Shown piece by piece: positions 6,772 through 47,214 of a DNA stretch of 64,000 bases. A program made the position numbers and the translations under genes. The first letter of the stretch is position 1. The number at the start of each line of letters is the position of its first letter. The notes beneath the pieces were generated by a model. It did no database searches, was not told where the DNA came from, and was given only the letters and a program-made list of their open reading frames with translations. Source of the stretch: an uncultured Coriobacteriia bacterium (lineage in GTDB: Bacteria; Actinomycetota; Coriobacteriia; Anaerosomatales; PALSA-660); the NCBI GenBank assembly GCA_963701985.1, contig OY969691.1, forward strand, positions 191,629 to 255,628, in the 5' to 3' direction.

Positions 6772-7280
6772 GAAAAGCGCTGCCGACCGCGATCGTGCTC
6801 CTCGTCGCGGTGATCCTGCAGACGTCCGTCGTGCCCTATCTCGCCATCTTCGGCGTGGTGCCGAACGTGCTGTTCCTCGTCGTCATCACACTCGGCCTCA
6901 CCGAGGGACCGGCGGCGGGCGGCGTGGCCGGATTCATCGCCGGGCTGCTCATCGACCTGCTCGGCACCGGGGTGGTCGGCCCGATGGCGCTCATCCTGTG
7001 CCTCGTCGGCTACGGCGTCGGTATGCTCCAGGCCAACATGTTCGCGGAGGGGTGGCTGCTGCCCGTCACCACGGTGCTGATAGCCAGCGTCCTCACCGAG
7101 ATCTCCCACGGCGTCGTCCTCGCGGTCCTCCAGCCGGGCACGGACTTCTGGCGGGCGCTGTTCTCGGTCATGCTGCCCGGCGCGATCTACAACACCGCCG
7201 TCGCCGTGCTCGTCTACCCGTGGCTCGGGCGGCTGCTGGGCACCGACCGTCATGTCAAGTCGTTCCGGCGTCTCGCGTGA
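6768..7280 (+). CDS. mreD: Rod-shape-determining protein MreD
   Basis: ATG 6768 overlaps the mreC stop (ATGA). The 170-aa polytopic membrane protein is in the expected mreBCD order. Confidence 0.8.
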   Translation: MRKALPTAIVLLVAVILQTSVVPYLAIFGVVPNVLFLVVITLGLTEGPAAGGVAGFIAGLLIDLLGTGVVGPMALILCLVGYGVGMLQANMFAEGWLLPVTTVLIASVLTEISHGVVLAVLQPGTDFWRALFSVMLPGAIYNTAVAVLVYPWLGRLLGTDRHVKSFRRLA

Positions 7281-25134: not shown

Positions 25135-26025
25135 ATGGCACGCGCAGCAGCGAACGCGCAGGCTGGACCGAACGAGGGCGCCGGCGTCAAGGAACGGCTG
25201 GTCGCGCATTTCCGGAAGCGCCGTGAGCCGCTTCGCAAGCGATGGGTCGAGCTCATGACGGCCAAGGGTCTGCTGCCCGGACTTTCCGAGCAGGAGATCG
25301 AGACCGAATCGATGGCGATCTACGACACGTGCGTGACCTGCCTCGCTACGGGCAGCTACGCTGACGCGGAGAACTACGCGGCGCAGATGGCGAGTCGCGG
25401 CGTGCTCCAGAGCCTGAGCGCGGAGCAGATCCTGGGCGGCTTCCTCACCCTGCGCGACGTCTACGGCCGAAGCCTGTTCGATGAGTACCGCAACGATATG
25501 TCCACGCTCTTCGCCGCGCTCGATGTCTACGAGCCCGTGGCGAATCAGATCCTCGCCATCGTGGCGCTCGCGTTCATCCACGAGCGCGAGAACATCGTCC
25601 GCGAGCAACAATCCGCGATCCGGGAGCTGTCCACCCCCGTGCTGCCGCTGCGAGCGACCGGGTTGCTGATCCTGCCGATCATCGGCGTGATCGACACGCA
25701 GCGGGCACGCCAGCTGACCGAGCAGCTGCTCAACGCGATCCGAGAGCATCGGGCCAAGGTCGTGGTCCTCGATATCACCGGGGTCCCGATCGTGGACACC
25801 AAGGTCGCCAACCATCTCGTCCAGACCGTTCAGGCTTCGCGGCTCATGGGAGCCACCGTGATCGTCTCCGGTCTGTCTCCCGAGATCGCCCAGACGCTGG
25901 TCACGCTGGGCGTCGACCTCACCGAGCTCAGGACGGTCGTCGACCTCCAAGCGGGCATCGAGGTCGCCGACCGCTTGGTCGGATTCGAGCTCAGGCCCAT
26001 CGAGTCCGCCGGCGCGGGCGCCTAG
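25135..26025 (+). CDS. rsbR: Stressosome scaffold/sensor RsbR-like protein (N-terminal helical sensor domain plus C-terminal STAS)
   Basis: The C-terminal half, LSTPVLPLRATGLLILPIIGVIDTQRARQLTEQLL...VVVLDITGVPIVDTKVANHL...GATVIVSGLSPEIAQTLV, is an RsbR-type STAS domain. GGAAGGA precedes the ATG. Confidence 0.8.
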   Translation: MARAAANAQAGPNEGAGVKERLVAHFRKRREPLRKRWVELMTAKGLLPGLSEQEIETESMAIYDTCVTCLATGSYADAENYAAQMASRGVLQSLSAEQILGGFLTLRDVYGRSLFDEYRNDMSTLFAALDVYEPVANQILAIVALAFIHERENIVREQQSAIRELSTPVLPLRATGLLILPIIGVIDTQRARQLTEQLLNAIREHRAKVVVLDITGVPIVDTKVANHLVQTVQASRLMGATVIVSGLSPEIAQTLVTLGVDLTELRTVVDLQAGIEVADRLVGFELRPIESAGAGA

Positions 26026-26056
26026 CCGGCCCCGGGGACAGGGCGGTCGTGACCAG

Positions 26057-26431
26057 ATGAGTGCACCGGTGCTCAAGCAGGGCGATCTCCTGCTCGTCTC
26101 CATCCAGTCGAGCCTCGGAGACAACGAGTTGCTGGACCTTCGGGACGAGCTGGTCGAGAAGGTCGGCCGCTTTCGGTCGAGCGGCGTGATCATCGACGTG
26201 ACCGCGATGGACGTCATGGACTCGTTCGCGACGCGGAACCTTCGCGCGATCGCACAGATGACGAAACTGCGAGGTGCGACCACCGTCATCGTGGGGGTGC
26301 AGCCTGCGGTCGCTTTCGCCATGGTTCAGCTCGGTCTGACGCTCGAGGGTGTGACCACGGCCTTGGACCTCGAAGAAGGTCTTGACCTCCTTCGTCACGA
26401 ACCCGGCGGGCGATCGCGCGATGATGGATGA
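26057..26431 (+). CDS. rsbS: Stressosome STAS protein RsbS
   Basis: 124-aa single STAS domain (PVLKQGDLLLVSIQSSL...VIIDVTAMDVMDSFATRNL...TVIVGVQPAVAFAMVQLG). Confidence 0.85.
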   Translation: MSAPVLKQGDLLLVSIQSSLGDNELLDLRDELVEKVGRFRSSGVIIDVTAMDVMDSFATRNLRAIAQMTKLRGATTVIVGVQPAVAFAMVQLGLTLEGVTTALDLEEGLDLLRHEPGGRSRDDG

Positions 26432-26825
26432 GCACTGCGTGCGCATCTTCGAGGAGTCGGACATCGTCTCCGCTCGTGAGCGCGGCAAGCAGGTGGCCGA
26501 GCGCGGCGGTTTCACCGGCAGCGACCTCACCATCATCGCGACGGTGATCTCGGAGCTCGCGCGCAACATCTTCGAATACGCCGTGGGACCGGGGGAGATA
26601 TGCGTCGGGCTGGAAGCGGGGGAGCGCCCGGCGTTCGTCGTCATCGCGTGCGACGACGGTCCCGGGATCCCCGATGTGGAGATGGCCATGACCGACGGAT
26701 TCTCGACAGGGAACGGGCTCGGCCTCGGGCTGCCCGGCGTGCGTCGGCTGATGGAGGATTTTCAGATCGACTCAGGACCGGGTCGAGGGACCAGGGTCGT
26801 TGCGCGGAAGCGTCTGCGGCGATGA
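26421..26825 (+). CDS. rsbT: Stressosome switch kinase RsbT (GHKL ATPase)
   Basis: ATG 26421 overlaps the rsbS 3' end. The 134-aa protein carries a HATPase_c domain (ELARNIFEYA...DDGPGIPD...GLGLGLPGVRRLMD). Confidence 0.85.
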   Translation: MMDEHCVRIFEESDIVSARERGKQVAERGGFTGSDLTIIATVISELARNIFEYAVGPGEICVGLEAGERPAFVVIACDDGPGIPDVEMAMTDGFSTGNGLGLGLPGVRRLMEDFQIDSGPGRGTRVVARKRLRR

Positions 26826-27418
26826 TCGACTGGGCCGTTGCGTCGCGCCGGCTCGCCGGCGAGAGCGAGTCGGGCGACGCGTACGTGGCCGTGCCGATCG
26901 ACGGAGGGATGCTGCTCGCCGTGATGGACGGCTTGGGGCACGGTCACGACGCCGCTGTCGCGAGTGGCATCGGCGCCTCCACGTTGGTCCAGGACCCGCG
27001 CGGCGATCTGCCGGCGTTGTTCACGCGATGCCACCAGGCGCTCGCGGGGACCAGAGGCGCGGTCATGGTTCTCGCGCGGCTGAGCGAAAGAGACTCGACG
27101 GTCACGTGGGCCAGTGTCGGTGACGCCTACGGCGTCGTGGCGCGTGGGCCCATGAGCGGCGATAAGCGGGAGAGCGTGCTGCAGCGACCCGGTATCTTGG
27201 GGCACCGGCTGCCGCGCATCACCGAAGAGACGCTTCACATGGCGCCCGACGACACCCTGGTCCTGGCGACCGACGGACTGCGCGGGAGTTTCCTCGGAGC
27301 GCTCGATTCGCTTCCGGAGCCACGTCTGGCTGCCGACCATCTGCTGGCGGAATACGGTCGCGAGCAGGACGACGTGCTGGTGCTCGTGGCCCGTCTTGCG
27401 AGCGGGGAGTCCGGATGA
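26822..27418 (+). CDS. rsbX: RsbX-like PP2C feedback phosphatase
   Basis: ATG 26822 overlaps the rsbT stop (ATGA). A small PP2C/SpoIIE-type fold (SGDAYVAV...AVMDGLGHGHDA...LATDGL). Confidence 0.75.
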   Translation: MIDWAVASRRLAGESESGDAYVAVPIDGGMLLAVMDGLGHGHDAAVASGIGASTLVQDPRGDLPALFTRCHQALAGTRGAVMVLARLSERDSTVTWASVGDAYGVVARGPMSGDKRESVLQRPGILGHRLPRITEETLHMAPDDTLVLATDGLRGSFLGALDSLPEPRLAADHLLAEYGREQDDVLVLVARLASGESG

Positions 27419-28476
27419 GTCCGGAGGCGGATCCCGGCGAGACGATCGAGGGGCTCAGCCGGGACTACGCGAATTCGCTGCGCGAGTACATCGGGGAGGG
27501 CGGCGAGCGCTGGCTGAACGACGGCCACCTCCTCGGCAGACGCGCGATGAGGATGGGGCTCGGCATCCTGGATGTCGTCGAGCTGCATGCCTCCGCGGTC
27601 GGCTCGCTGGATCCCGGACGGGGCTTCGGATTCCTCTCTGAAGTCCTTGGACCGTACGAGATGACCCATCGCGGTTTCGAGGAGTCAAACGCGAGACTTC
27701 AGAAGGCGAACGTCGCCTTGCGTGAGCAGATCGATGCCTACGACGTGCAGCACCGGATCGCCCTTCTCCTCCAAGAGGCGATCCTGGAACAGCCGCCCGA
27801 GGTACCGGGACTGCAGATCGGCATCTGCTATGCCTCTTCGACCGAGGAAGCGCTCGTGGGCGGCGACTTCTACGACGTGTTCACCCTGTCGGACCGGCGC
27901 GCCTACTGCGTCATCGGGGACGTCTCGGGCAAGGGGATCGAGGCGGGCGGCCTGGCCGCCATGGCGAAGAACTCCATCCGGGTCTGCGCGGTCATGGATC
28001 CGCGACCCCACGCGATGCTGTCGTGCGTCAACAAGTCGCTGGACCGCTTCACCCCGGACGAGGTCTTCGTCACCGCGTTCGTTGCGCTGGTGGAGGCGGA
28101 TGCCAGGCGGATCACGTACTGCAGCGCGGGTCATCCCGCGCCGATCGTCATCACCGCGCAGGGACGCGCTCGCCGTCTCGACACCGCGAAGGCGACGGGG
28201 CCGGTCCTGGGCGCCTGCGTGGACGGTCGATACAAGAGTGGCGTGTGCTCGCTCGGCGCCGGCGACACCTTGGTGCTGTTCACGGATGGCGCCGTGGAGG
28301 CTCGCCGCGACGGGGTGCTGCTCGGCGATGACGGCTTTCGCGACTTGCTCCGAGTGGAAGAGGCGGTCGACCCGTCACGGCTGCTCGCCGTGGCCCTCGA
28401 GGATCTGCGGGATTACTCGAGGGGGCAGCTGCGCGACGACATCGCGATGCTGGCCGTCCGGTTCTCGGCGGCCTAA
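27415..28476 (+). CDS. rsbU: RsbU-type PP2C phosphatase with an N-terminal RsbT-binding (RsbU_N-like) helical domain
   Basis: ATG 27415 overlaps the rsbX stop (ATGA). The C-terminal SpoIIE/PP2C domain reads VGGDFYDVF...IGDVSGKGIEA...LFTDGAVEAR...DDIAMLAV. Confidence 0.8.
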   Translation: MSPEADPGETIEGLSRDYANSLREYIGEGGERWLNDGHLLGRRAMRMGLGILDVVELHASAVGSLDPGRGFGFLSEVLGPYEMTHRGFEESNARLQKANVALREQIDAYDVQHRIALLLQEAILEQPPEVPGLQIGICYASSTEEALVGGDFYDVFTLSDRRAYCVIGDVSGKGIEAGGLAAMAKNSIRVCAVMDPRPHAMLSCVNKSLDRFTPDEVFVTAFVALVEADARRITYCSAGHPAPIVITAQGRARRLDTAKATGPVLGACVDGRYKSGVCSLGAGDTLVLFTDGAVEARRDGVLLGDDGFRDLLRVEEAVDPSRLLAVALEDLRDYSRGQLRDDIAMLAVRFSAA

Positions 28477-28647: not shown

Positions 28648-28723
28648 GGGGCCATAGCTCAGCTGGGAGAGCGCTTGGCTGGCAGCCAAGAGGTCAGGGG
28701 TTCGATCCCCCTTGGCTCCACCA
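28648..28723 (+). tRNA. tRNA-Ala (anticodon GGC), CCA encoded
   Basis: Folded by hand into a cloverleaf. The acceptor stem ggggcca/tggctcc has the G3:U70 alanine identity pair. The anticodon loop is ctGGCag, the T-arm is agggg-ttcgatc-cccct, and the 3' end is a terminal acca. Confidence 0.95.
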
Positions 28724-28733
28724 AAGAGAACTC

Positions 28734-28773
28734 GGTAGGGCCCGGTGAGAACCGGGCCCTACCTGCGTCTTCC
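28734..28773 (+). terminator. Hairpin after the tRNA (possible terminator)
   Basis: A perfect 13-bp stem (ggtagggcccggt / accgggccctacc) with a GAGA loop. The downstream tail tgcgtcttcc is only weakly U-rich. Confidence 0.5.
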
Positions 28774-28889
28774 GGCGTGAGACCCAGGTGGGCTGGAGTC
28801 TGGCGACGACCGGTCCGGCGCTCGTGGCGGCCATGCTCGTTGGACGGGTCTTCCGGTCGTGGTTTGGCGGGCGCCGCTGTGGCGAACAA

Positions 28890-28954
28890 GCGCTTCAACC
28901 TGACGCGCCGAGGCGCGCGCATACTGTTGGCGAATCGGCGCGCAGGTTAAGCGC
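28890..28954 (+). repeat. attC-like structured repeat, copy A
   Basis: GCGCTT[C]AACCTG[A]CGCGCCGA - 23 nt - TCGGCGCGCAGGTTAAGCGC. The 20-bp arms pair perfectly apart from two unpaired bases. GTTAAGC matches GTTRRRY. GTTGG lies 8 nt downstream. Confidence 0.8.
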
Positions 28955-28987
28955 ACCACGTTGGCGCCATCGGCATGGGGGAGACTC

Positions 28988-29608
28988 GTGGCGGAAGGCT
29001 CGGAGCGCCTGAGTTGGCTCGCGCGCTTCTCGATCAGGGTTTCGTCCCCCAGGTCACTGCGGCTTGTGCCGCTCATGCGTAGGTTCTACGCAGTGGACAT
29101 TCAGCCTGCCGGCCGGGTCGACGACTCCGAGCTGCGCGCGGCCGAAAAAGGCACGATTGATGCGCCGCGCTACCTGCTCGCCATGCTGTTCGTTGCTGTG
29201 GGCATCATGGTCATCCTCTTCACTTGGTTGTTCCCGCTGTTGCAGGCACATGGCGAGCTGCTGATCGACCCGACCTTCAATGCGATCGCGGACGCAGCCG
29301 TGCGGATCGGCTGGGGCGAATCGGCCGCAAGTGTGGTCGCAAGCGCCCTGATGCTTGTGGGGATCTTGTTAGCGGGAGTCGTGTGCGCTGCTGTGTTCGT
29401 CACGCCGATATGGCTTCTAGGGCGGGCTTCAGTACGCGCTTGGGGTTCAACGGTCTCGGTAGCACTCGCGCTGATATCTCAACCAGCGCCATCGTCGCTG
29501 ACCGATGCCGCGACGCCGTATCCGCGTACGCGCTACGCACTGAGCAGGATGCGTGACGGCGTGTCCGTGCTGAATATTGGATTGACGCCACCGGAAGTGC
29601 GCGGCTGA
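28988..29608 (+). CDS. Cassette 1: hypothetical membrane protein
   Basis: Part of track ORF 28961..29608. GTG 28988 is chosen because GGGGGAG lies 4 nt upstream, as in the other cassettes. Three to four hydrophobic helices. No family recognised. Confidence 0.5.
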   Translation: MAEGSERLSWLARFSIRVSSPRSLRLVPLMRRFYAVDIQPAGRVDDSELRAAEKGTIDAPRYLLAMLFVAVGIMVILFTWLFPLLQAHGELLIDPTFNAIADAAVRIGWGESAASVVASALMLVGILLAGVVCAAVFVTPIWLLGRASVRAWGSTVSVALALISQPAPSSLTDAATPYPRTRYALSRMRDGVSVLNIGLTPPEVRG

Positions 29609-29620
29609 GCGCGCTAGCGA

Positions 29621-29686
29621 GCGCGTCAACCTGACGCGTCTGTAGAGGCGCACAATGGTGGGGGAATCGGCGTGCAGGTTAAGCGC
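29621..29686 (+). repeat. attC-like structured repeat, copy B
   Basis: GCGCGT[C]AACCTGACGCG...GCGCACAATGGTGGGGGAATCGGCGTGCAGGTTAAGCGC. Starts 12 nt after the cassette 1 stop. Confidence 0.8.
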
Positions 29687-29718
29687 CCAACATTCGGTGG
29701 GAGGACGGGGCACGCAAG

Positions 29719-30024
29719 TTGGCGGTCACCGACTCCAAGGACGAGCTCCTTGCTGACAAGCCCAGCCGTCTTGCCCTCGGCTTGAACATCGGCATCGCCG
29801 TGCTCCTGCTCGGGACTCCGATCATCTTGGTTTATCTCTTTGTCACGGTCGTTCTGGCCGGCGCCTTCCAACAGGCCGGATCGTCGTGGCCTGTCGCAAA
29901 CGCTCTCGGCGGGATCCTCGTCATTGTGCTGGTTGTGTCACGCTACGTGCTGCGCCGAGGGCGCTGGATGCGGCATGGCGCTCCACACCGAACGAGCGCT
30001 TCCAGCGGACGGCGTAGGGTGTGA
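29719..30024 (+). CDS. Cassette 2: small two-TM membrane protein
   Basis: 101-aa ORF starting at TTG, with GGGAGGA 12 nt upstream. Two hydrophobic helices. No family recognised. Confidence 0.5.
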   Translation: MAVTDSKDELLADKPSRLALGLNIGIAVLLLGTPIILVYLFVTVVLAGAFQQAGSSWPVANALGGILVIVLVVSRYVLRRGRWMRHGAPHRTSASSGRRRV

Positions 30025-30061
30025 GCAATGAAGCAGGCGCTGCGGTCCACCGCTGAAGCGC
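29996..30061 (+). repeat. attC-like structured repeat, copy C (stem sequence changed, structure kept)
   Basis: GCGCTT[C]CAGCGG ... CCGCTGAAGCGC. It has the same length (66 bp) and the same bulged C as copy A, but six stem pairs are replaced by compensatory pairs. It overlaps the last 29 nt of cassette 2. Confidence 0.7.
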
Positions 30062-30098
30062 CAGACGCTAGGCGTGATACGCCGGGGGGATGTCGCGC

Positions 30099-30761
30099 AT
30101 GCGAAAGCTTGGGGTCTTAGGAATCGCGCTCGTGGGAGTCTTGCTCCTCATCACCTCTGTGGGCTTCTACTGGCTCCCGATCAGCGTCATCTTCGCCGAC
30201 ATGGGCAGCTATCCTAAGCTGCTCGCCGTGTTTCTCGCGGCTCTTCCTTTCCTTGTCTGTGTCGCCGGAGGTCTCTTCCTGCTGAACCGACGCGACTCTC
30301 TTGCCGAACGATGGTTCCCGGTGTCGGAGTCGCCTTTTGTACTCGCCTCTGACGACCTGCTGCGTGTGGGCCTCGTTCTCATTGGCGCGTACCTGTTCGC
30401 CGAAGCGATTCCCTCGCTCGTCAGCCAACTGACGAGTCCCATCGTCCAGATCGTCCAAATCAACGCACAGGTCGATGCTGGTCTTGGCGCGCCGGATGTC
30501 TGGAGCCAGCTGCTCACCGCCACGCCGAGCATTCTCGCCACCGTCGCGAGACTCGGGATCGGGTGGTTCCTCGTTGCGCGTTCAGGCCGGATCGCGGCGC
30601 GGTTGATCGGCGATTCGTCACCGGTTCAGGGGTCGCCGAACTCAGCGGTCTTGGCTTGCCCGACCTGTGGAGCACCATATGACCTGTCCGAGTACGAGGG
30701 TGGCCTGGTTGAGCCGAGGTGCGCGACGTGCAAGCAGCCACTCGACGTCCCACACGCCTAA
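30099..30761 (+). CDS. Cassette 3: four-TM membrane protein with a C-terminal zinc-ribbon (paralogue family with cassettes 7 and 8)
   Basis: MRKLGVLGIALVG... aligns with the N-termini of 32663 and 33343. LAERWF corresponds to LAEQWFED in the paralogues. The C-terminus reads CPTCGAPYD...CATCKQP. ATG 30090 is an alternative start. Confidence 0.6.
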   Translation: MRKLGVLGIALVGVLLLITSVGFYWLPISVIFADMGSYPKLLAVFLAALPFLVCVAGGLFLLNRRDSLAERWFPVSESPFVLASDDLLRVGLVLIGAYLFAEAIPSLVSQLTSPIVQIVQINAQVDAGLGAPDVWSQLLTATPSILATVARLGIGWFLVARSGRIAARLIGDSSPVQGSPNSAVLACPTCGAPYDLSEYEGGLVEPRCATCKQPLDVPHA

Positions 30762-30765
30762 CAAT

Positions 30766-30826
30766 GGTTCCAACTTCGCGCACAATGGAAGTGGACCAGC
30801 GGTGGGTCGAGCGCAGGACGTCGGGC
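30766..30826 (+). repeat. attC-like repeat, copy D (degenerate, 5' arm shortened)
   Basis: GGTTCCAAC-TTCGCGCACAATGGAAGTGG...GAGCGCAGGACGTCGGG. It keeps CAAC, GCGCACAATGG and GCGCAGG but lacks part of the 5' arm. Confidence 0.55.
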
Positions 30827-30836
30827 AGGGGGCACG

Positions 30837-31256
30837 ATGGGAACAGACGCGGCCACAACTTCCTGGATAGTCAGGCTCATTGGAATCTATGTCGGTATCT
30901 ACGCTGCGGTGTGCGCCGTCGGAGGAGTGCTCGGCATCCAAGCGGCCGGAACTGCCGGACTCGTGATGAGTCTGGCGCTGCTCGTGGTTTCCATCGGCCT
31001 GTTGAGCGGCGCCATCGGGTTGGTCTTGCTCAAAGCCTGGTCCCGATGGGTGGCAGTCGGGTCGCTGATCGCGCTCATAGCGGTGAAGGCCGCCCCATAC
31101 CTGCCGACACTGGCAGGTCTGGGGTTTCCCAAGGGCTTCGTGGCGTTGGCCGTGCTTGCGCCGGCCCTCGCTCTGCCCGCGATCTGCTGTGCATACCTCG
31201 CTTTCGCGAAGCTGGATGTCCTGCGGGCGGCGCCGACCGAGGATCGAGCAGCCTAG
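30837..31256 (+). CDS. Cassette 4: four-TM membrane protein
   Basis: 139-aa ORF with CAGGGGG upstream of the ATG. Hydrophobic throughout. No family recognised. Confidence 0.55.
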   Translation: MGTDAATTSWIVRLIGIYVGIYAAVCAVGGVLGIQAAGTAGLVMSLALLVVSIGLLSGAIGLVLLKAWSRWVAVGSLIALIAVKAAPYLPTLAGLGFPKGFVALAVLAPALALPAICCAYLAFAKLDVLRAAPTEDRAA

Positions 31257-31303
31257 CCCCGGCTGACGACCCTTCGGTGCCGGCGGTTCTCGGATCATGA
31301 CCG

Positions 31304-31378
31304 GCGCGCCAACCTGACGCACCGGAGCGCGCGCATAATGCGGGGAGCAGGCGGCCGGCTTGCGCGCGAGACGTCGGG
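31304..31378 (+). repeat. attC-like repeat, copy E
   Basis: GCGCGC[C]AACCTGACGCACCGGAGCGCGCGCATAATGCGGGGAGCAGG...GGCTTGCGCGCGAGACGTCGGG. The outer stem GCGCGC[C]AA/TTGCGCGC covaries relative to copy A. Confidence 0.65.
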
Positions 31379-31472
31379 TCTGAAGACGCGGCGCTTGAGG
31401 CGGCCGGGCCTGGTCGTCGCCAGGCTCGTCGCCTCGCGTTGCGCGGTACACGTCAGGTAGAGAGAAAGGGTC

Positions 31473-32048
31473 GTGCTCGTGCTTCTCGTTATCCGTTATT
31501 GGGTCTTGCCGGTATCCGCACTGACGTGCGGCGTGTCCTGGGCCGTGATCCGATCGGCCATGCGCGTGCCGGTGCGACGGGCCGCGCTGGAGGCGCTCTT
31601 CGTCGGATATCTGGCCGCGCTGTTCTACGTGGTCTTCTTGCTGCCGAGTGGCCCGAGACCCGATGCCGCGTTGTCCGCTTGGACTTCGGTCAACCTCGTG
31701 CCAGTGCGCACCATCATCGGGATCATCCGGGACAACCCCCGCATGATCGGCTGGCAGATCTTCGGCAATGTGATCCTGTTCATGCCGCTCGGCTTCCTTC
31801 TGCCGGTGCTCAGCACGCGCTTCCGGCGGTTCGCCCTGACAGCGGCCACGGCGCTCTCCGTGTCAGTGAGCATCGAACTCGTCCAACTCGCGATGCTGCT
31901 CATGCTGATCGCACGCAGGTCGGTCGACGTCGACGACGTCATCCTCAACGTGACCGGGGCCTGCGTGGGCTATCTCATCTGGCGGGGCGCGCATGCTCTT
32001 GAGCAGACCTCTGGGCAAGGTCCGGGAGTGCTCGAAGACGCCGACTAG
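31473..32048 (+). CDS. Cassette 5: VanZ-like family membrane protein
   Basis: Contains NLVPVRTI...FGNVILFMPLGFLLP...SVSIELVQL...RRSVDVDDVILNVTGACVGYLIW, the VanZ-like signature. AGAGAAAGGG precedes the GTG. Confidence 0.75.
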   Translation: MLVLLVIRYWVLPVSALTCGVSWAVIRSAMRVPVRRAALEALFVGYLAALFYVVFLLPSGPRPDAALSAWTSVNLVPVRTIIGIIRDNPRMIGWQIFGNVILFMPLGFLLPVLSTRFRRFALTAATALSVSVSIELVQLAMLLMLIARRSVDVDDVILNVTGACVGYLIWRGAHALEQTSGQGPGVLEDAD

Positions 32049-32070
32049 CCTCAGGCGCCTTCCCAAGAAG

Positions 32071-32135
32071 GTCCTTCAACCTCATGAGACCACGTGCGCA
32101 TAATGCGAGGTAGGCGCGCCGCGCAGGCTAAGCGC
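32071..32135 (+). repeat. attC-like repeat, copy F
   Basis: GTCCTT[C]AACCTC...GTGCGCATAATGCGAGGTAGGCGCGCCGCGCAGGCTAAGCGC, with GTTGGAT 8 nt downstream. Confidence 0.7.
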
Positions 32136-32179
32136 CGAGTGTTGGATCGAAGAGTCTCACTCCTAGAATCGGAGGACTC

Positions 32180-32449
32180 GTGGATCTCGCCAAGATGCTG
32201 ATCGTCTCCTTCATCTGCTGCGCGCCTCTGTTCCTGATCCTGGTCATCGTCGCGATCGTTGTCGCGGTCACGCGCTCCAGGCGGAAGGCTGATGAAGCGT
32301 CCGAGCCGTCGGCGGAACAGCAGGCGTCTGCGCCGGCTGGCTGGTATCCGGATCCGATGGCACGTCACGAGTACAGGCAGTGGGATGGCACGCAGTGGAC
32401 GGCGGCCGTCTCGGACAACGGCGTCGTCGGCAGCGATCCTCCGTCGTAG
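32180..32449 (+). CDS. Cassette 6: small membrane-anchored DUF2510-like protein
   Basis: N-terminal TM helix followed by PAGWYPDPMARHEYRQWDGTQWT (the DUF2510 GWYPDP motif). GGAGGA precedes the GTG. Confidence 0.65.
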   Translation: MDLAKMLIVSFICCAPLFLILVIVAIVVAVTRSRRKADEASEPSAEQQASAPAGWYPDPMARHEYRQWDGTQWTAAVSDNGVVGSDPPS

Positions 32450-32650
32450 GCGCAGCATCGCGGCCGCACGTTGGACCGGATCGAGGGGTTCAGCGGATGA
32501 GGCGGATCGGCGCAGGCTTCGCGACGACGATCGCTCAGGGTGTGGCGCGCGAGCGCGCATACTGGTGGGGGATAGGCGCGCAGGTTAGGCACCACGCGTT
32601 GACCGCGATCGCCGGGTTCTTCCGGTAGGCGCAACACGTTCGGCGCGACT
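32450..32650 (+). repeat. Composite of at least three partial attC-like repeat copies (region G)
   Basis: Three 3'-arm fragments are visible: GGCGCAG...GCACGTTGGAC; ATCGGCGCAGGCTTCGCG; and a full centre plus 3' arm, GCGCGCATACTGGTGGGGGATAGGCGCGCAGGTTAGGCACC (canonical GTTAGGC at 32584-32590). TAGGCGCAACACGTTCGG follows. No intact 5' CAAC arm is present. Confidence 0.65.
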
Positions 32651-32662
32651 CAAGGGGGAGTT

Positions 32663-33235
32663 GTGAGAAAGGTCGGCGTGCTCAGCATTGCGCTTGCAGG
32701 GTTGCTGACCCTCGGTTCGGCTGCCTTCACCTTGAGCGTGGCGATCGCCTACCTTGATACAGCTGTGACCGGCTCTTCAGCATGGCCGCTCGTAGTAGCG
32801 ATGTTGCTGGTGATTCCTGTTGTCCTGCTGGCCGCAGTTGGGCGTTGGCTGATCGTCCACCGTGAGCGCTTGGCCGAGCAGTGGTTCGAGGATGGCGTTC
32901 CGCCAGACGTCGCATTGGGCGCCACCGCGCTGACGGGGGCGCTGCTGGGCCTTGCTGGTATCTGGCTCTCCGTTAACGGCGTCGGCGGCCTGTTCGTCAC
33001 CGCGGCCGATGCGGTCCGGTACCTTCAGCAGTCGCAGGCACCGTTCGGTGCGAGCCCCGAGGCAGAGGTGATCCGGCAGGTTCTGCACATCCAGAAGCTG
33101 TCCGCTCGCATGGTGCTGCAGGCGTTCGCGTTGCAAGCACCCGGCTTCACCTCAGATCTTGTGAGGCTCGGCCTTGGACTCATCGTGCTCCTCAGGCGCA
33201 CATCCATCGCCGGATGGCTCACGCGGTGCAGGTGA
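32663..33235 (+). CDS. Cassette 7: four-TM membrane protein, paralogue of 33343 and 30099
   Basis: 190 aa. MRKVGVLSIALAG...WPLVVAMLLVIPVVLLAAVGRWLIVHRERLAEQWFED...RRTSIAGWLTR aligns along its length with cassette 8. Confidence 0.65.
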   Translation: MRKVGVLSIALAGLLTLGSAAFTLSVAIAYLDTAVTGSSAWPLVVAMLLVIPVVLLAAVGRWLIVHRERLAEQWFEDGVPPDVALGATALTGALLGLAGIWLSVNGVGGLFVTAADAVRYLQQSQAPFGASPEAEVIRQVLHIQKLSARMVLQAFALQAPGFTSDLVRLGLGLIVLLRRTSIAGWLTRCR

Positions 33236-33247
33236 TGGCGCCTGATA

Positions 33248-33323
33248 GCGCGTCGAGCCGACGCGACTTGGAAGGCGCACAATGTGGGGGAGTCGGGGCG
33301 CCATGTGCGCACCGACCGTTGGG
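33248..33323 (+). repeat. attC-like repeat, copy H (both core ends degenerate)
   Basis: GCGCGTCGAGCCGACGCG...AGGCGCACAATGTGGGGGAGTCGGGGCGCCATGTGCGCACCGACCGTTGGGC. The centre is nearly identical to copy B, but CAAC and GTTAAGC are lost. Confidence 0.6.
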
Positions 33324-33342
33324 CGCCGATCGAGGGGGAGCG

Positions 33343-33927
33343 GTGAGGAAGCTCGGCGTGCTCGGCATCACGATCGTAGGGTTGATGATTCTGGCCTCGG
33401 CTGGCGTCACCTTGATGTTGCCGCTCATCCTGATCGGCGAGATCGTCAATGGCTCTTCACCATGGCCGCTGGTCGTGGTCGCGATTCTGCTTGGGACGAT
33501 TCCGTTCGCCTTGTTGGTAGCACTGGGCCGCTGGTTGATCGTCCACCGCCAGTGTTTGGCCGAGCAGTGGTTCGAGGATGACGATTCGCTGGACGTCGCA
33601 TTCGGGGGCACCGCGCTGATCGGGGCGCTGCTCGGCGTCGCCGGTGTCTGGCTCACTGTCAACGGCATCAGCGGTGTGTTCGGCGATGTGGCAGGCGCGA
33701 TCCAACAGGTTCCGCAGGCCCAGAGGACATTCGGTCACATGATGCTGCGGGCGTTCGTCTGGCAAGCACCTGCCTTCATTTCAACCCTGGTTACGCTCGG
33801 ATTTGGACTGCTTCTGCTCTTCAGGCGCACATCCATCGCCGGGTGGCTCACGCGCGGTGAAGGTGGTGGCTCCCAAGAAGGCCCTCAGCTCGATGCTCGC
33901 GAGCACGCGCCTGCTATCGGGGAGTAG
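33343..33927 (+). CDS. Cassette 8: four-TM membrane protein, paralogue of 32663
   Basis: GTG 33343 follows GAGGGGGAG, inside track ORF 33214..33927. VRKLGVLGITIVG...WPLVVVAILLG...GRWLIVHRQCLAEQWFED...RRTSIAGWLTR. Confidence 0.65.
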   Translation: MRKLGVLGITIVGLMILASAGVTLMLPLILIGEIVNGSSPWPLVVVAILLGTIPFALLVALGRWLIVHRQCLAEQWFEDDDSLDVAFGGTALIGALLGVAGVWLTVNGISGVFGDVAGAIQQVPQAQRTFGHMMLRAFVWQAPAFISTLVTLGFGLLLLFRRTSIAGWLTRGEGGGSQEGPQLDAREHAPAIGE

Positions 33928-33941
33928 ACGCGTGAGCAGTA

Positions 33942-34002
33942 GTGCTTCCAGCGATGCGAAGGGGGCACGCTGCGCGGCCTGACCGAGAGCTCCATTCGGC
34001 GG
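33942..34002 (+). repeat. attC-like repeat, copy I (strongly degenerate)
   Basis: GTGCTTCCAGCGATGCGAAGGGGGCACGCTGCGCGG...CCATTCGGCGG. It shares GCTTCCAGCG with copy C and CATTCGG with copy B. Confidence 0.35.
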
Positions 34003-34015
34003 TCCGGTCGGTGGC

Positions 34016-34180
34016 ATGATGGGCGGGGCGGCCGTTGGATCGTTGCTGCTCTTCGGTCTCGTCCTTCCATCGGCCTTACTGCTCAACGCGTTGAATCCGT
34101 TCGGTCTGTCCTTCGGACCGGGCTTGCTTGAGCCGTTCTGGACCGCGGTCGCGGCTGCGGTGTTATCCCGGCCAGCCTAG
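34016..34180 (+). CDS. Cassette 9 (tentative): 54-aa hydrophobic peptide
   Basis: Read by hand and not in the ORF track (under 60 aa): MMGGAAVGSLLLFGLVLPSALLLNALNPFGLSFGPGLLEPFWTAVAAAVLSRPA. It fills the gap between repeats I and J. Confidence 0.3.
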   Translation: MMGGAAVGSLLLFGLVLPSALLLNALNPFGLSFGPGLLEPFWTAVAAAVLSRPA

Positions 34181-34240
34181 CGTCATGCCGCAGTGAACAC
34201 GTGCGTATCGAGCAGAACCCGGGAGCTACACTGGTCTTCG

Positions 34241-34300
34241 AGCGCGCGGCGTGTGCGGTGCGCGCAATGTTGGGGCTGGTGCAGGTGAGCGGCACGACCC
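34241..34300 (+). repeat. attC-like repeat, copy J (centre plus 3' arm)
   Basis: GTGCGCGCAATGTTGGGGCTGGTGCAGGTGAGCGGCAC compares with the consensus GCGCACAATGGTGGGGGAATCGGCGTGCAGGTTAAGCGC. Confidence 0.55.
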
Positions 34301-34330
34301 ATGCAACGGCGCGTGGAGGCTGGTGGATGA

Positions 34331-34876
34331 GTGTACGGCGTTACTGCCAAGCGGCTGGGCGTACTCGTCCTCGTGATCGCCGCGGCTAGGCTTGCCGAGA
34401 ACTTGAGCGTCGTGTGGCTGCTTCCCAACACGCTCATCGCGGGCGCTCTCGTGGCACTCGCCCTGCTCAACGCCTGGCTGCTGTACCGCTTCGGATCGGT
34501 TGCATCGGGCACTCCCGCGGAGTCGCTGTTCACAGCCGCGATTGTTTCGATCTTCGTCGTCCCGATCGCAGAAATTGCTCTCGGTGAGATCGGTTCTCCT
34601 TGGCTTCCCGCGATTCTTTCCGCGGTGCCGGCGTTGCTGATGTGGGCGGGCCTGCTTCGGGCTCGTTGGGTCGCGCCGTGGATCCCATGGCTCGGAGTGG
34701 GCTCGGCGGTGTTCGCCGCAGCCGCAAGCTCCCTTCACGGCGTCTTGCCGAATGTTCTGGGCCAGGGACTCGCTTGGCTCGAGTATGCTTGGGCGATCCT
34801 GGTCCTAGTTTCCCTGGGACGCTCTCTCTTAGGGCTCTCCGATCGAGCAGGTCCGGACACCGCTCCCGCGAGCTAG
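34331..34876 (+). CDS. Cassette 10: polytopic membrane protein
   Basis: 181 aa with five to six hydrophobic helices. The N-terminus AKRLGVLVLVIAAA weakly echoes the MRKLGVLGIAL family. GGAGG precedes the GTG. Confidence 0.55.
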   Translation: MYGVTAKRLGVLVLVIAAARLAENLSVVWLLPNTLIAGALVALALLNAWLLYRFGSVASGTPAESLFTAAIVSIFVVPIAEIALGEIGSPWLPAILSAVPALLMWAGLLRARWVAPWIPWLGVGSAVFAAAASSLHGVLPNVLGQGLAWLEYAWAILVLVSLGRSLLGLSDRAGPDTAPAS

Positions 34877-34900
34877 GACGCGCCGGCAAGCCTGCCTGAG

Positions 34901-35100
34901 CGGTTCAACCTGGCGCGCCAAAGCGCGCGCATGCCGATGTCGGAGGCCGCATCCGCCCGGATGGCGCCCTTAGGCACCGGCGCGGGCGCGCCGCAGGCCG
35001 TGTTCTGCTCGCGCTCGGGATCGCGCTCATCGTGCCGGCGCGTGTCGTGATGCGGCCAGCGCCGCGATGACGGGGGATGGGCGCGCAGGTCACGCGCGCC
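34901..35100 (+). repeat. attC-like repeat, copy K (terminal copy, split by about 135 nt in the loop)
   Basis: The 5' half is CGGTTCAACCTGGCGCGCCAAAGCGCGCGCATGCC (34901-34935). The 3' half is GGGGGATGGGCGCGCAGGTCACGCGCGCC (35072-35100). An internal CCTTAGGCACC lies at about 34968. Confidence 0.6.
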
Positions 35101-35119
35101 ACGGCTCCGGAGAAACGAC

Positions 35120-35140
35120 GAGGTCAGGACCCCTGACCTC
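35120..35140 (+). other. Perfect 9-bp hairpin closing the cassette array
   Basis: gaggtcagg-acc-cctgacctc. There is no U-tract on the + strand and only a weak one (gtcgtttctcc) on the - strand. Function unknown. Confidence 0.3.
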
Positions 35141-43823: not shown

Positions 43824-44011
43824 CCGCGCGGCCGGCCGGATGCGGTCGGGATGCCGTTCGGAAGCGGTCGGGATGTCGTCCGCTCGCGGTCGACTCCCGG
43901 ACCGGCGCCCGGCGCACGATCGCCTTGCTCGAAGGAAGCAGCCGCGGCCAGCGCGCTCGGCCGTGATCGTCGCGAACCGGAAGACCCCCTCGCCGGTGTG
44001 AGGGGGTCTTC

Positions 44012-44677
44012 GTGTTCCGCGAGATGCGTGAGTGGGCCGAGGAGCTGTCGTGCCGGCTCGGGCTCGACACATGGAGCCCGGCCGCGCGACGTCTCGGTGC
44101 CGGGATCGCCATCGTCCTGGTGGCGCTGGCGGCCTGGCGTTGGTGCGGGGGAGGCGCGGCCCCGTCGGGCGTCGCGCCGATGCCGGCGGCGGCCGGGACC
44201 AGTGTCGAGGCCACCGGAGCGCGGCCGGCGGGTCCCGGGACGGCGACCGTGGACGTCGTGGGGGCGGTCCGGCATCCGGGCGTGTATCGCCTCACGGCCG
44301 GATCGCGCGTCGACGACGCCGTGAGCGCGGCCGGCGGCATGCTGGGCAGCGCCGACGCCGCGGCCGTGAACCTGGCGCGCGTTCTCAACGACGGCGAGCA
44401 GATCGTCGTGCCGGTGAAGGGAACGGCGGCGACCGGAGCTCAGGCGGCCGGTGCGGCCGCGTCGGGCGGCGCCGCGGCCGGCGGCGTGGTCGATCTCAAC
44501 ACCGCGACGGTCGAGCAGCTGGACGCGCTGCCGGGCGTGGGGCCGGCCACGGCCAAGAAGATCGTCGACGACCGCACCCGCAACGGCCCGTTCCGCACGG
44601 TGGACGACCTGCTACGCGTGCCCGGGATCGGGCCGAAGAAGCTGGACGCGCTGAAGGACCTCGTGACGGCGAGATGA
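44012..44677 (+). CDS. comEA: Competence protein ComEA (SLBB plus helix-hairpin-helix DNA-binding domains)
   Basis: An N-terminal TM helix is followed by VDVVGAVRHPGVYRLTAGSRVDDAV (SLBB) and the C-terminal DLNTATVEQLDALPGVGPATAKKIVDDR...VPGIGPKKL. Confidence 0.85.
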   Translation: MFREMREWAEELSCRLGLDTWSPAARRLGAGIAIVLVALAAWRWCGGGAAPSGVAPMPAAAGTSVEATGARPAGPGTATVDVVGAVRHPGVYRLTAGSRVDDAVSAAGGMLGSADAAAVNLARVLNDGEQIVVPVKGTAATGAQAAGAAASGGAAAGGVVDLNTATVEQLDALPGVGPATAKKIVDDRTRNGPFRTVDDLLRVPGIGPKKLDALKDLVTAR

Positions 44678-47214
44678 GGGCCCTCTCCCGGGTCGCGGCG
44701 GACTCCGCGGTGCCGCGCCCGTCGGTCTCCCCGTTGTTCTGGGCCGGCGTCGCGTGTTGGGCCGGAGGTTGGGTGGGAACGGAAGCCGCGCTGCGCGCGT
44801 GGTGTACGGGGACGCGGAGCGCGGTCGAGGTCGCGTGGGCCGTCGTGGCGACGGCGACGGCCTGCGGGGTGTTCGCGCGCCGCTCGCGACTCCGGCTCCC
44901 GGCCGCGGCGTTCGCCCTGGGCCTGTGCGTGGCGCTCCTGCATGGCGCGTGGGTGACCGCGAGCGCCACGCGGGCGGCCTCGGCTGGCCCGGCCGAGTGG
45001 CGCGCCGTGGTCGCGGCGGACCCGGTGGCGGGCCCGACGGGCGCGACGGTGGCGCTGCGCCTCCGCGACGGTCCCGCGGCGGGCGCCGTGGCGGTCGTCG
45101 GTTGGCCGGCCGGAGAGCCGCTCCCGGAGTACGGGCGGCTCGTGCGCGTTCGGGCGCGGCTGCGCGTCGTGGACGGCTCGAAGCCGTCGGGCCGCGCCGA
45201 GTTCCGGAGCGGCCGTCTCCTGCGCGGCACGCCCTGGCGGGTGGCCGAGGATGGATGGACGCCGGGTCCTCTGGGTCGGGTGGCGTGCTGGCGTGCGGCG
45301 GCTCTGGGCCGTCTTCGGGGGCTGCGTGGGGACGGTCCGGCGCTCGTGGCGTCGATGCTGTTCGGCGATCGAACGCGCACCAGCGGGTCGCCGGTCGAGG
45401 AGGACGCGAAGGCGGCCGGTGTGGCGTGGCTGCTGAACGCGTCCGGGCTGCATCTAGCGGCGCTCCTTCTCCTGGCGGACCGGATCGCGGCGTTCGTCGG
45501 GCTCGGCCGCAGGGGCAGAGCCGGCGCGTCGATCGGCGTCGGGGCGGTCGTGTGCGCGGCGGCGGGAGCCCGGATCGCGCTCGTGCGCGCGGCGCTCGTC
45601 GCGGCCGCGGCCGTCCTGGCGCGACTCGCCGGACGAAGACGCGACGTGACCGCGGCGGTCGGGGTGGCGGTGCTGGTCCTGGTCTGTCTGGACCCGGCGG
45701 CCGCGGAGGACGTCGGCCTGCTGCTGGGCGTCGTCGCGGTGACGGCGATAGCGCTGTTCGGGAGGCTCGCCGCCGAGTGGCTGCGGCCGATCGCCGGACG
45801 GGCGCTCGCGACCGCGATGGCCGCGTCGGTGGTCGCGCAGGTCGCGGTGGCGCCGATCTCCGCGTCGCTCTTCGGGGCGCTGAACGCACTGGCGCCCGCC
45901 TCGCTCGTGGTTTCCGCGCCTCTCGCGGCGACGGCGGTGGGGCTCGGCGCGTCGGGAGCCGTCGCGGGCGGACGGCTCGGCGCGCCACTCACCGCGCTGG
46001 CGTGCATGTTCGCCCAGGGCGCGGCGACCGTGTGGCACGTGGCGGCCGGCCTCCCGGGGGCCGTCGTGCCCGTCGCCTCGGTACCGTGGTGGGCTTGGGC
46101 GGCCTGGGTGACGGTGCCGGCCCTCGCGTGGTGGCGCTGGCCATCACCTCGTCGCGGACCGCGTCTTCGCGCGATCGTCGCGGTCGTCGTGACGCTCGTC
46201 GCGATCCTGGCGCTCATCCCGCGTCCCGCCGGTCCCGAGATCGTCGTGATGGACGTCGGACAGGGCGACTCCATCCTCGTGCGCGACAGCGGCCACGCGA
46301 TGCTCGTGGACACGGGGCCCGACCCGGTGACGCTGCGTCGCGCCCTGTCTCGTAACGGCGTACGCGCGGTGGACGGTGTCGTCCTCACGCACATCCACGC
46401 CGACCACGTCGGAGGCATCTCGGGACTGCGCGGGGTGGTCGCGGAGCCGGCGTGGATCGGTGTGCCCGACGTGGACGATCGCGGGGTCGACCGCTTGGCG
46501 GCCGCGTGCGCCGGCCGCGCGGGGACCGTGATCAGGCTCCGTCGCGGCATGACCTGGCGCGTGGGCGAGACCACGGTACGTGTGCTGTGGCCTCAGGGAG
46601 GTGAGCGGCAGCTCCAGGCCAACGACACGAGCGTGGTGCTCTTGCTCGCGCGGCACGGCGCGGCGGTGGCGCTGCTGCTCGGCGATGCGGAACAGCGCGC
46701 GCAGCTCGGGGCACTCGATGCGTTCTCCGGGAGGGTGCCGATCATGAAGGCCGCGCATCACGGCAGCGTGAACGGCGTCGTGCCGGAGGCGCTGTCCGCA
46801 TGGTGCCCGCGGGTCGTGCTCATCAGCTGCGGCGCCGGCAATCCGTTCGGTCACCCGCACCGGGCCGCGCTGGAGGCGTACGGCCGGATCGGCGCCCAGA
46901 TCCACCGCACGGACCTCGAGGGCGATCTTGTGTGGGCGGTCGACGCGACCGGCGTGTGCGACAATCGCACGGTCCGGACGGGCGCCGCGGGCGCCCCCGT
47001 GGGAAGGGCCGCATGGCCGCGAGCGATCTCAGCGATCTCAAGCCCGTCTACCTCATCTACGGCTCCGAGGAGCTCCTGCTGGAGAACGCGGTCCGTCGGC
47101 TGCGGGACCGTCTGGCCGCGGTGGCGGACCTCGATTTCAACATGGAGACCTTCGACGGCGAGTCGGCCTCCGCCGACGACATCGTCAACGCCGCCAACAC
47201 CATGCCGTTCATGA
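44674..47214 (+). CDS. comEC: Competence protein ComEC/Rec2 (DUF4131, competence and metallo-beta-lactamase domains); 3' end uncertain
   Basis: ATG 44674 overlaps the comEA stop. A polytopic membrane region is followed by the MBL motif VLTHIHADHVGG...AAHHGS. The frame stays open about 200 nt into holA, so the true stop may be lost. Confidence 0.75.
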   Translation: MRALSRVAADSAVPRPSVSPLFWAGVACWAGGWVGTEAALRAWCTGTRSAVEVAWAVVATATACGVFARRSRLRLPAAAFALGLCVALLHGAWVTASATRAASAGPAEWRAVVAADPVAGPTGATVALRLRDGPAAGAVAVVGWPAGEPLPEYGRLVRVRARLRVVDGSKPSGRAEFRSGRLLRGTPWRVAEDGWTPGPLGRVACWRAAALGRLRGLRGDGPALVASMLFGDRTRTSGSPVEEDAKAAGVAWLLNASGLHLAALLLLADRIAAFVGLGRRGRAGASIGVGAVVCAAAGARIALVRAALVAAAAVLARLAGRRRDVTAAVGVAVLVLVCLDPAAAEDVGLLLGVVAVTAIALFGRLAAEWLRPIAGRALATAMAASVVAQVAVAPISASLFGALNALAPASLVVSAPLAATAVGLGASGAVAGGRLGAPLTALACMFAQGAATVWHVAAGLPGAVVPVASVPWWAWAAWVTVPALAWWRWPSPRRGPRLRAIVAVVVTLVAILALIPRPAGPEIVVMDVGQGDSILVRDSGHAMLVDTGPDPVTLRRALSRNGVRAVDGVVLTHIHADHVGGISGLRGVVAEPAWIGVPDVDDRGVDRLAAACAGRAGTVIRLRRGMTWRVGETTVRVLWPQGGERQLQANDTSVVLLLARHGAAVALLLGDAEQRAQLGALDAFSGRVPIMKAAHHGSVNGVVPEALSAWCPRVVLISCGAGNPFGHPHRAALEAYGRIGAQIHRTDLEGDLVWAVDATGVCDNRTVRTGAAGAPVGRAAWPRAISAISSPSTSSTAPRSSCWRTRSVGCGTVWPRWRTSISTWRPSTASRPPPTTSSTPPTPCRS

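Follow-up and report, generated by a model that had tools for sequence, protein, structure and literature searches.

We analyzed a window of 64,000 nt from an uncultured Coriobacteriia bacterium (GenBank assembly GCA_963701985.1, contig OY969691.1, positions 191,629 to 255,628), in which a series of small genes and palindromic repeats, examined here as candidate attC sites of an integron, lies downstream of a tRNA gene. All of these genes and repeats are on the + strand. The tRNA-Ala gene (anticodon GGC; 28648-28723, + strand) is the conserved left landmark of the locus, being present at the same place in relatives that carry no array, and directly 3′ of it is a GC-rich, terminator-like hairpin (28734-28763, strand not assigned). 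The array spans 28.88-35.11 kb and starts 155 nt 3′ of the tRNA gene, with only one hairpin within this interval. Ten open reading frames (ORFs) are located between 29075 and 34876, each with at least one hydrophobic segment resembling a transmembrane (TM) segment, and across 29-35 kb the GC content dips to 63-66%, compared with a mean of ~70% for the window. The initial annotation of this DNA had proposed an integron-like cassette array without an integrase, adjoining tRNA-Ala and consisting of ten small + strand ORFs that mostly encode membrane proteins; the tRNA and the ten ORFs are as it described.

The bottom strand of an attC site folds to a hairpin, whose R box, L box and two extrahelical bases (G and T) serve as recognition features for the integron integrase, IntI; the enzyme cleaves between the A and the C of the bottom-strand AAC (between the G and the first T of GTT on the top strand). 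Recombination of attC with attI inserts a cassette, and recombination of attC with attC excises one. Alignment of the window copies showed that the repeat unit is ~86 nt, with a conserved outer box at each side, and not the ~65 bp first reported, although the palindrome reads in copy A as it had been quoted. In copies from other genomes, this palindrome is preceded by GYCTAAC or CCGAAC plus AA, and after a spacer of 5-6 nt it is followed by GTTAGR or GTTCG, giving the family consensus R′′(YYTAAC or CGAAC)-AA-GCGCTT[C]AACCTG[A]CGCG...CGCGCAGGTTAAGCGC-5/6 nt-R′(GTTRG.), in which bracketed bases are unpaired. The true R′′ (..AAC) and R′ (GTT..) boxes thus lie 2 nt and 5-6 nt, respectively, outside the inner boxes. 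Since these flanking AAC/GTT boxes reproduce the canonical attC layout R′′-L′′...L′-R′, the motifs GCTT[C]AAC and GTTAAGC, which had been taken, together with GTTAGGC, for the bounding R-type boxes, are the inner L′′ and L′ boxes. The loop is conserved in the aligned window copies (GCGCAYAATGG...GGGGA), with a CGTTGG box 5-6 nt outside the palindrome. The terminal loop of this attC subfamily (GGCGCACAATGG..GGGGA) contains a -10-like hexamer, and is conserved in window sites A-G and in five loci from elsewhere (L016, L009, L111, L095 and L014). Matches to the arm motifs occurred far above chance (for the right arm, 5 matches at ≤3 mismatches vs 0.03 expected), and all of them are on the + strand and inside 28.9-35.1 kb; no repeat copies were seen elsewhere in the 64-kb window, and an Rfam scan at a permissive E-value returned the tRNA as its sole match.

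A covariance model, R1, was built from the 15 best copies and given an attC-type structure; 86% of cells pair in its seed alignment, vs 19-42% with the partner slid. The initial annotation had suggested a search with the attC covariance model as a check. A search of the whole window with R1 gave significant matches to site A (83.5 bits), site B (62.9 bits), site C (33.6 bits), site D (29.1 bits) and relic K (21.2 bits). Site A (28881-28966, E 1e-24) is the only intact site. It consists of R′′ GGCGAAC (28881-28887), AA, GCGCTT, a bulged C (28896), AACCTG, a bulged A (28903), the stem CGCGCCGA, a loop (28912-28934), TCGGCGCG CAGGTT AAGCGC (28935-28954), the spacer ACCAC and R′ GTTGGCG (28960-28966), and its bottom strand is predicted to fold to a canonical hairpin in which the R box is paired and a T and a G are bulged out (DNA fold, -29 kcal/mol, z -3.3). 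Site B (29612-29698) is close in sequence to sites from Coriobacteriia (L016), with AAC changed to AGC in R′′ (CGCTAGC), GTT changed to ATT in R′ (ATTCGGT), an eroded inner stem and no canonical fold. Site C (29987-30073) is a member of a second subfamily, with the sequence GCGCTT[C]CAGCGG[A]CGG...CCGCTGAAGCGC, in which the L-box pair shows a compensatory change from AACCTG/CAGGTT to CAGCGG/CCGCTG. This site retains an intact R′′ (ACCGAAC) and has GTT changed to GCT in R′ (GCTAGGC) and one stem mismatch; sites from five other arrays (L124, L093, L006, L111 and L016) match it with 80-92% identity. Site D (31295-31379) retains its left arm, with 3 mismatches, and its loop, the right arm being eroded and the outer boxes reading TCATGAC (R′′) and GTCGGGT (R′).

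The remaining copies are relics. Relic C′ (30756-30826; a weak 12.5 bits with R1) has an intact R′′ (GCCTAAC), a shortened middle and R′ GTCGGGC, and relic E (32061-32147), recognised by its arm motif with 2-3 mismatches in the right arm depending on the consensus stretch, has R′′ TCCCAAG (AAC changed to AAG) and an intact R′ (GTTGGAT). Relic F (32541-32604) is a half-site comprising loop, right arm and R′ GTTGACC, with up to 89% blastn identity to L111. Relic G (33240-33324), identified by an arm motif plus a blastn match to other arrays, has R′′ GCCTGAT, an L box changed to GAGCCG, an eroded right arm and an intact R′ (GTTGGGC). The whole-window R1 search found nothing recognisable as attC after ORF8, and after ORF9 only a doubtful relic, consisting of loop plus right arm (34258-34293; 5.2 bits, not significant). 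Two half-sites close the array, relic J (34890-34945), which retains GCGGTT[C]AACCTG[G]CGCGCC as its left arm, together with the start of the loop, and relic K (35030-35109), with the end of the loop plus right arm GGCGCGCAGGTCACGCGC and GGCTCCG at the position of R′. J (left half) and K (right half), which together occupy 34890-35109, are mutually complementary and ~125 nt apart; they could be one site with an insertion in the loop, or two sites fused through a deletion. We also considered whether the gap between J and K contains a truncated 3′ end of an ORF7/8-family gene, and rejected this as unsupported, as it depends on a 13-aa match with an E value of 0.07.

In total, ~10 sites or relics are present, one of them intact. 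Where the initial annotation counted 11 like copies, one per ORF, these sites or relics follow 8 of the 10 ORFs, and the copies are unequal, with none after ORF8. The spacing from stop codon to R′′ is an overlap for ORF2 and ORF3, 3-39 nt for five others and ~90 nt for ORF6, and the sites sit 7-107 nt 5′ of the next ORF, an arrangement of compact, co-oriented ORFs, each with an attC site at its 3′ end, that is characteristic of gene cassettes. Site A alone has both AAC and GTT; B, C, C′, D, E, G and K have lost one or both of these triplets or carry changed versions of them. Folding of the copies, also suggested as a check, returned the canonical structure for the bottom strand of site A and failed to do so for B, C, D, E and G.

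As R1 holds no canonical attC sites, we applied it to seven class 1 attC sites of two plasmids. The aadA1 attC query shows 100% identity to the 60 nt immediately 3′ of the aadA1 gene of plasmid R100. R1 detected 5 of the 7 sites, on the correct (cassette) strand, with 23-35 bits (E ≤ 1e-5): the aadA1 attC of R100 (35 bits, E 2e-9), those of aadA2, of a cassette encoding a HAD-family hydrolase and of a second aadA1 copy, and one more on pSTM6-275. The remaining two sites scored ~10 bits (E 0.3-0.5). In the class 1 matches, R′′ and both bulges are in register with R1, i.e., AAC, 8 nt, bulged C, 6 bp, bulged A. The initial annotation had placed unpaired C and A on the + strand, hence G and T on the - strand, and left the order of these bases to be confirmed; the identical register in the aadA1 attC now demonstrates that it is canonical. 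The window sites therefore share with class 1 attC sites (59-base elements) the arrangement R′′-8 nt-[C]-6 bp-[A]-stem...L′-spacer-R′, as can be seen by comparing the aadA1 attC of R100, GTCTAAC AATTCGTT[C]AAGCCG[A]CGCCGC, with site A, GGCGAAC AAGCGCTT[C]AACCTG[A]CGCGCC. They differ from class 1 sites in their length (~86 nt vs 60 nt) and in a loop that is conserved within the family, and three extra GC pairs lie between the R and L boxes, leaving an unpaired spacer of 2 + 5-6 nt.

Covariation was examined in 106 sites from 14 loci, in an alignment fitted to R1 and hence somewhat favouring the structure. In this set, 87.3% of cells pair, vs 73.7% in shuffles and 24-36% in slid controls, and 388 double-sided changes were counted vs 155 in shuffles, with 0 of 500 shuffles reaching the observed value. 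Double-sided changes occur at 21 of the 27 stem pairs, one of which, for example, is split between CG in 56 sites and GC in 49, and AAC/GTT are retained in 99-103 of the 106 sites. This supports a predicted DNA or RNA hairpin with AAC/GTT outer boxes. The family thus has the features of attC, i.e., outer R boxes (within the window, only in A), L boxes with bulges in register and a structure conserved over sequence, and the reading of the repeats as probable integron attC sites is supported by these comparisons.

The same element is found in arrays elsewhere. Scanning one genome per species for CAACCTGRCGC, 28-45 nt and GCAGGTTARGC returned 21 stretches, of which 14 contain the full element (13 in metagenome-assembled genomes (MAGs), of which 7 are from Coriobacteriia, 3 from Thermoleophilia, 1 from Actinomycetes and 2 from Firmicutes/Eubacteriales, and 1 in a gammaproteobacterial endosymbiont). 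The arrays that R1 detects in MAGs of Coriobacteriia and Thermoleophilia, on contigs up to 2.7 Mb long, comprise 8-24 sites per 8-10 kb, all sites of an array being on one strand at a spacing of 300-1200 nt. The GC content of other arrays in this attC family is 62-65%, compared with 63-66% for the window array and ~70% for its flanks. No intI was found among the 21 genome loci, most of which lie inside arrays; the L003 locus begins beside pntB, and the L016 locus beside unknown ORFs. The same two-arm pattern was found at 107 loci in metagenome contigs, where a tblastn search with IntI1 identified full or partial integrases, 52-58% identical to IntI1, in L059, L076, L095 and L085. Two of the IntI proteins score 478 and 458 bits on the NCBIfam model TIGR02249 "integron integrase" (cut-off 265). 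Sites detected by R1 lie downstream of intI on the same strand in L059, L076, L095, L085 and L137-L140, and begin 0.4-1.2 kb downstream of the TIGR02249 integrase in L076, L095, L085 and L137, which is evidence of association only. The same co-directional ("inverted") layout recurs on contigs of 220-327 kb that encode relatives of the L076 integrase. In one of the integrase-bearing contigs (L140, 220 kb), Dimeth_Pyl dimethylamine methyltransferase genes (7066-8535) are located ~1.5 kb upstream of the integron integrase, and Dimeth_Pyl is split into two ORFs, as expected from an in-frame pyrrolysine codon.

The IntI-bearing metagenome contigs are assigned to taxa by the cassettes they share and by how the submitters binned them. 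L076 (600-2020) shares two cassettes, at 95-98% nucleotide identity, with L003, a 332-kb Thermoleophilia contig (4753-7746), and in the two loci these cassettes are at different distances from the start of the array, which is consistent with either recent cassette movement or closely related hosts. NCBI records place close relatives of these integrases in MAGs of Thermoleophilia and Aeromicrobium, on short contigs. We rejected one further comparison, in which L137, L138 and L139 appeared to be strains with the same IntI and different cassettes: between them, every R1 match is shifted by the same distance, 8521 or 9498 nt, which shows that their DNA is collinear and that the gene calls alone differ.

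In the 64-kb window, tblastn with IntI1 and three related IntI proteins returned nothing below E 0.8, and neither an intI pseudogene fragment nor, in agreement with the initial annotation, any tyrosine recombinase was found. The window does not contain a complete integron, i.e., intI plus attI plus Pc beside the array. It does contain four significant sites (A, B, C and D) within 2.5 kb and no intI nearby, which is the arrangement of a cluster of attC sites lacking an integron integrase (CALIN), as defined by Cury et al. 2016 (PMC4889954). The array shares with a CALIN the spacing of its attC sites (at least two of them within 4 kb), their common strand, their pairing with small ORFs at one site each, and cassette genes of mostly unknown function; the differences are that the host belongs to Coriobacteriia (Actinomycetota), and that most sites are eroded, which the definition does not require.

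The array is also specific to this lineage. Relatives were found using Obg, since RsbU is a poor probe (its best match is 57% identical, with other downstream genes); the Obg of the window shares 80% identity with proteins attributed by NCBI to Coriobacteriia MAGs, and 70% identity with one from Anaerosomatales. Three relative contigs, with Obg 81-83% identical, are syntenic with the window from mreC through eamA and continue in the order eamA - tRNA-Ala(GGC) - pcsB/NlpC-P60 without any R1 site, so that the segment, whose conservation in all relatives had been named as a point to check, is absent from all three. As these relatives pass straight from the tRNA to pcsB, and the pcsB-like genes of the window are at 38.9-41.2 kb, the ~10 kb that follow the tRNA in the window are lineage-specific. 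The RsbU/STAS operon 5′ of the tRNA is likewise lineage-specific. No direct repeat of the tRNA 3′ end, which would mark a tRNA-targeted island, was found, the sole match being an unrelated inverted hairpin (35120-35140).

Based on the one-strand arrays found elsewhere, the TIGR02249 integrases next to them, the detection of class 1 attC sites and the covariation with near-invariant AAC/GTT, the window array is very probably a lineage-specific, mostly fossilised CALIN of ten cassettes in a Coriobacteriia chromosome, and the proposal of an integrase-less cassette array is therefore supported. Such an array would have been assembled by an integrase of the type found on the related metagenome contigs, either encoded by an adjacent intI that was later lost or acting in trans at a secondary site, and its assembly would postdate the separation of the lineage from the sampled relatives. 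Site A alone retains both crossover triplets, AAC and GTT, as well as a canonical fold; each of the other nine has point changes in these triplets or lacks an arm. Because AAC/GTT are kept in >93% of the sites of intact arrays, the pattern in the window points to decay rather than ordinary variation; with most of its copies eroded the array is probably no longer mobile, and with only site A intact its cassettes are now probably fixed chromosomal genes.

Several points weigh against this interpretation. The terms "inactive" and "fossil" are our reading of the sequence, and some real attC sites tolerate deviations. Even site A has imperfect R boxes, GGCGAAC/GTTGGCG, with one G-G mismatch. Relics C′, E, F, G and J score only 8-12 bits, a background level that unrelated sequence elsewhere in the window also reaches and that is non-significant by R1 alone; these five are identified by their arm motifs, by blastn matches to sites of other arrays and by their location behind an ORF. 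With the closest relatives only ~81-83% identical in Obg, the acquisition can be dated only within wide limits. In addition, the negative result for intI covers 64 kb, and an intI, or more copies of the repeat, may lie elsewhere in the 1.84-Mb genome.

An integrase encoded there could mean that the array is still functional and no fossil, its cassettes being moved in trans, and both the intact site A and the presence of IntI on related Actinomycetota contigs would fit this. We nevertheless consider it unlikely, since excision needs two proficient sites and A alone of the ten keeps AAC and GTT, which 99-103 of 106 sites in intact arrays retain; moreover, B, C, D, E and G lack a canonical fold, three copies are half-sites, and among the best 120 matches listed no IntI homologue was assigned to the genome of the window.

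Two further explanations would remove the repeats from the attC family altogether. Short, GC-rich, imperfect palindromes between genes are also what repetitive extragenic palindromes (REP) or miniature inverted-repeat transposable elements (MITE) look like, and a dispersed element of this kind might be clustered here by chance. The absence of any copy outside 28.9-35.1 kb in the 64 kb, the single strand with one copy per ORF, and the lack of such MITE hallmarks as target-site duplications or terminal inverted repeats make this highly improbable, as do the conserved asymmetric bulges and AAC/GTT outer boxes, which are not REP features, and the fact that the family adjoins IntI elsewhere and matches canonical attC sites. 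We give just as little credence to the idea that a set of membrane-protein genes is co-regulated here through repeated copies of a promoter, operator or 5′ leader. This idea draws on the conserved loop GCGCAYAATGG, which resembles a -10 hexamer and is followed by GGGGGA, and on the position of the sites 7-107 nt upstream of the following ORF. A simple sigma-70 scan, however, found no promoter-like site in the region, and the element matches no Rfam family; ORF2 and ORF3 each reach, with the stop codon or 3′ end, into the R′′ that follows them; the same loop is found in array-forming sites of many unrelated cassettes; and the covariation fits a hairpin with outer AAC/GTT boxes, not an operator.

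Taking the array to be a CALIN, the kind of element is known, and it is the host phylum that is unusual. Treponema denticola provides an example of a sedentary chromosomal integron with a co-directional integrase. The integrons on metagenome contigs L076, L095, L059 and L137 are organised in this way, with intI followed by a same-strand, homogeneous attC family plus small ORFs; the window differs in having no intI, and the related integrases are ~52-54% identical to IntI1. This co-directional ("inverted") orientation type is described in PMC13323075. In Actinobacteria, none of the three element types was found complete by Cury et al. (PMC4889954), and surveys of complete genomes reported no complete integron and only "a few CALIN" (PMC9024848), where the reason that some large clades lack integrons is regarded as an open question. 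The literature that we searched appears to contain no account of the extent of these arrays in uncultured Actinomycetota. We favor, with moderate confidence, the view that uncultured soil and peat Actinomycetota (Coriobacteriia and Thermoleophilia) keep their own lineage of large sedentary chromosomal integrons, with co-directional IntI and homogeneous attC sites, that the reported near-absence of integrons from the phylum reflects sampling to date and not biology, and that the window array is a decaying offshoot, preserving a trace of earlier integron activity in its Coriobacteriia lineage. With the window, a bona fide attC array is documented for a Coriobacteriia chromosome, and together with the related loci it provides concrete sequences for testing integron function in high-GC Gram-positive hosts, i.e., an attC consensus, IntI proteins, and intact plus naturally mutated sites. 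Its sites can also be ranked by their degree of natural decay (A > B, C > D ... F, J, K), a series that bears on how cassettes turn into fixed genes.

Examination of the individual cassette ORFs identified the families that the initial annotation had recognised, namely a VanZ-like protein (ORF5), DUF2510 (ORF6) and a set of three paralogues (ORF3, ORF7 and ORF8). ORF1 (29075-29608; 177 aa from the ATG) has two TM-like segments and a homologue on an array-bearing contig (L052; 34% identical over 105 aligned aa, E 1e-11). ORF2 (29719-30024; 101 aa) also has two TM-like segments, and its last 37 nt overlap site C. The stop codon TAA of ORF3 (30090-30761; 223 aa) is inside R′′ (GCCTAAC) of relic C′, and a full-length homologue, 37% identical, is a single cassette in a 24-site array (L111). 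ORF4 (30837-31256; 139 aa) encodes a multi-pass membrane protein, ORF5 (31473-32048) matches PF04892 with 92 bits, and ORF6 (32180-32449) combines one TM segment with DUF2510 and has homologues on six array-bearing contigs (L111, L053, L103, L115, L056 and L005). The L111 homologues of ORF3 and ORF6 are both single cassettes flanked by two attC sites. ORF7 (32663-33235; 190 aa) is 52% identical to ORF8 (33343-33927; 194 aa), and these are followed by ORF9 (34016-34180; 54 aa), with one TM-like segment, and ORF10 (34331-34876; 181 aa), which encodes a multi-pass membrane protein.

To the right of the array, the stretch at 35.1-38.9 kb, which is absent from the relatives, contains DUF6323 and DUF6179 genes, a YiiD_C thioesterase gene, a gene for a 55-aa YldA-like peptide, an Imm5-like gene and, on the - strand, a SnoaL gene. 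The Imm5-like gene, a putative immunity gene (PF21805; 37510-38022, + strand), is located 2.4 kb past the last recognisable attC, and its product has 58% protein identity to that of a cassette in the complete integron L095 (L095 3427-3918). Given this resemblance, the eroded array may extend further right, and the entire 35.1-38.9 kb stretch may consist of fully eroded cassettes.

To the left, a five-gene partner-switching module (25135-28476), encoding two STAS proteins, an anti-sigma kinase, SpoIIE and RsbU, is located between eamA and tRNA-Ala. This module is missing from the locus in the relatives with 81-83% identical Obg, and a more distant contig (L130) contains the same operon with different genes downstream. 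An independent short-read assembly of the same organism, Logan contig L001 (7580 nt), stops ~200 nt after rsbU, i.e., near the tRNA and the first attC site, as a contig break is expected at the onset of repeats. Elsewhere in the window, the region of the ComEC gene (44000-47200) has a GC content of 77-78%, well over the window mean.

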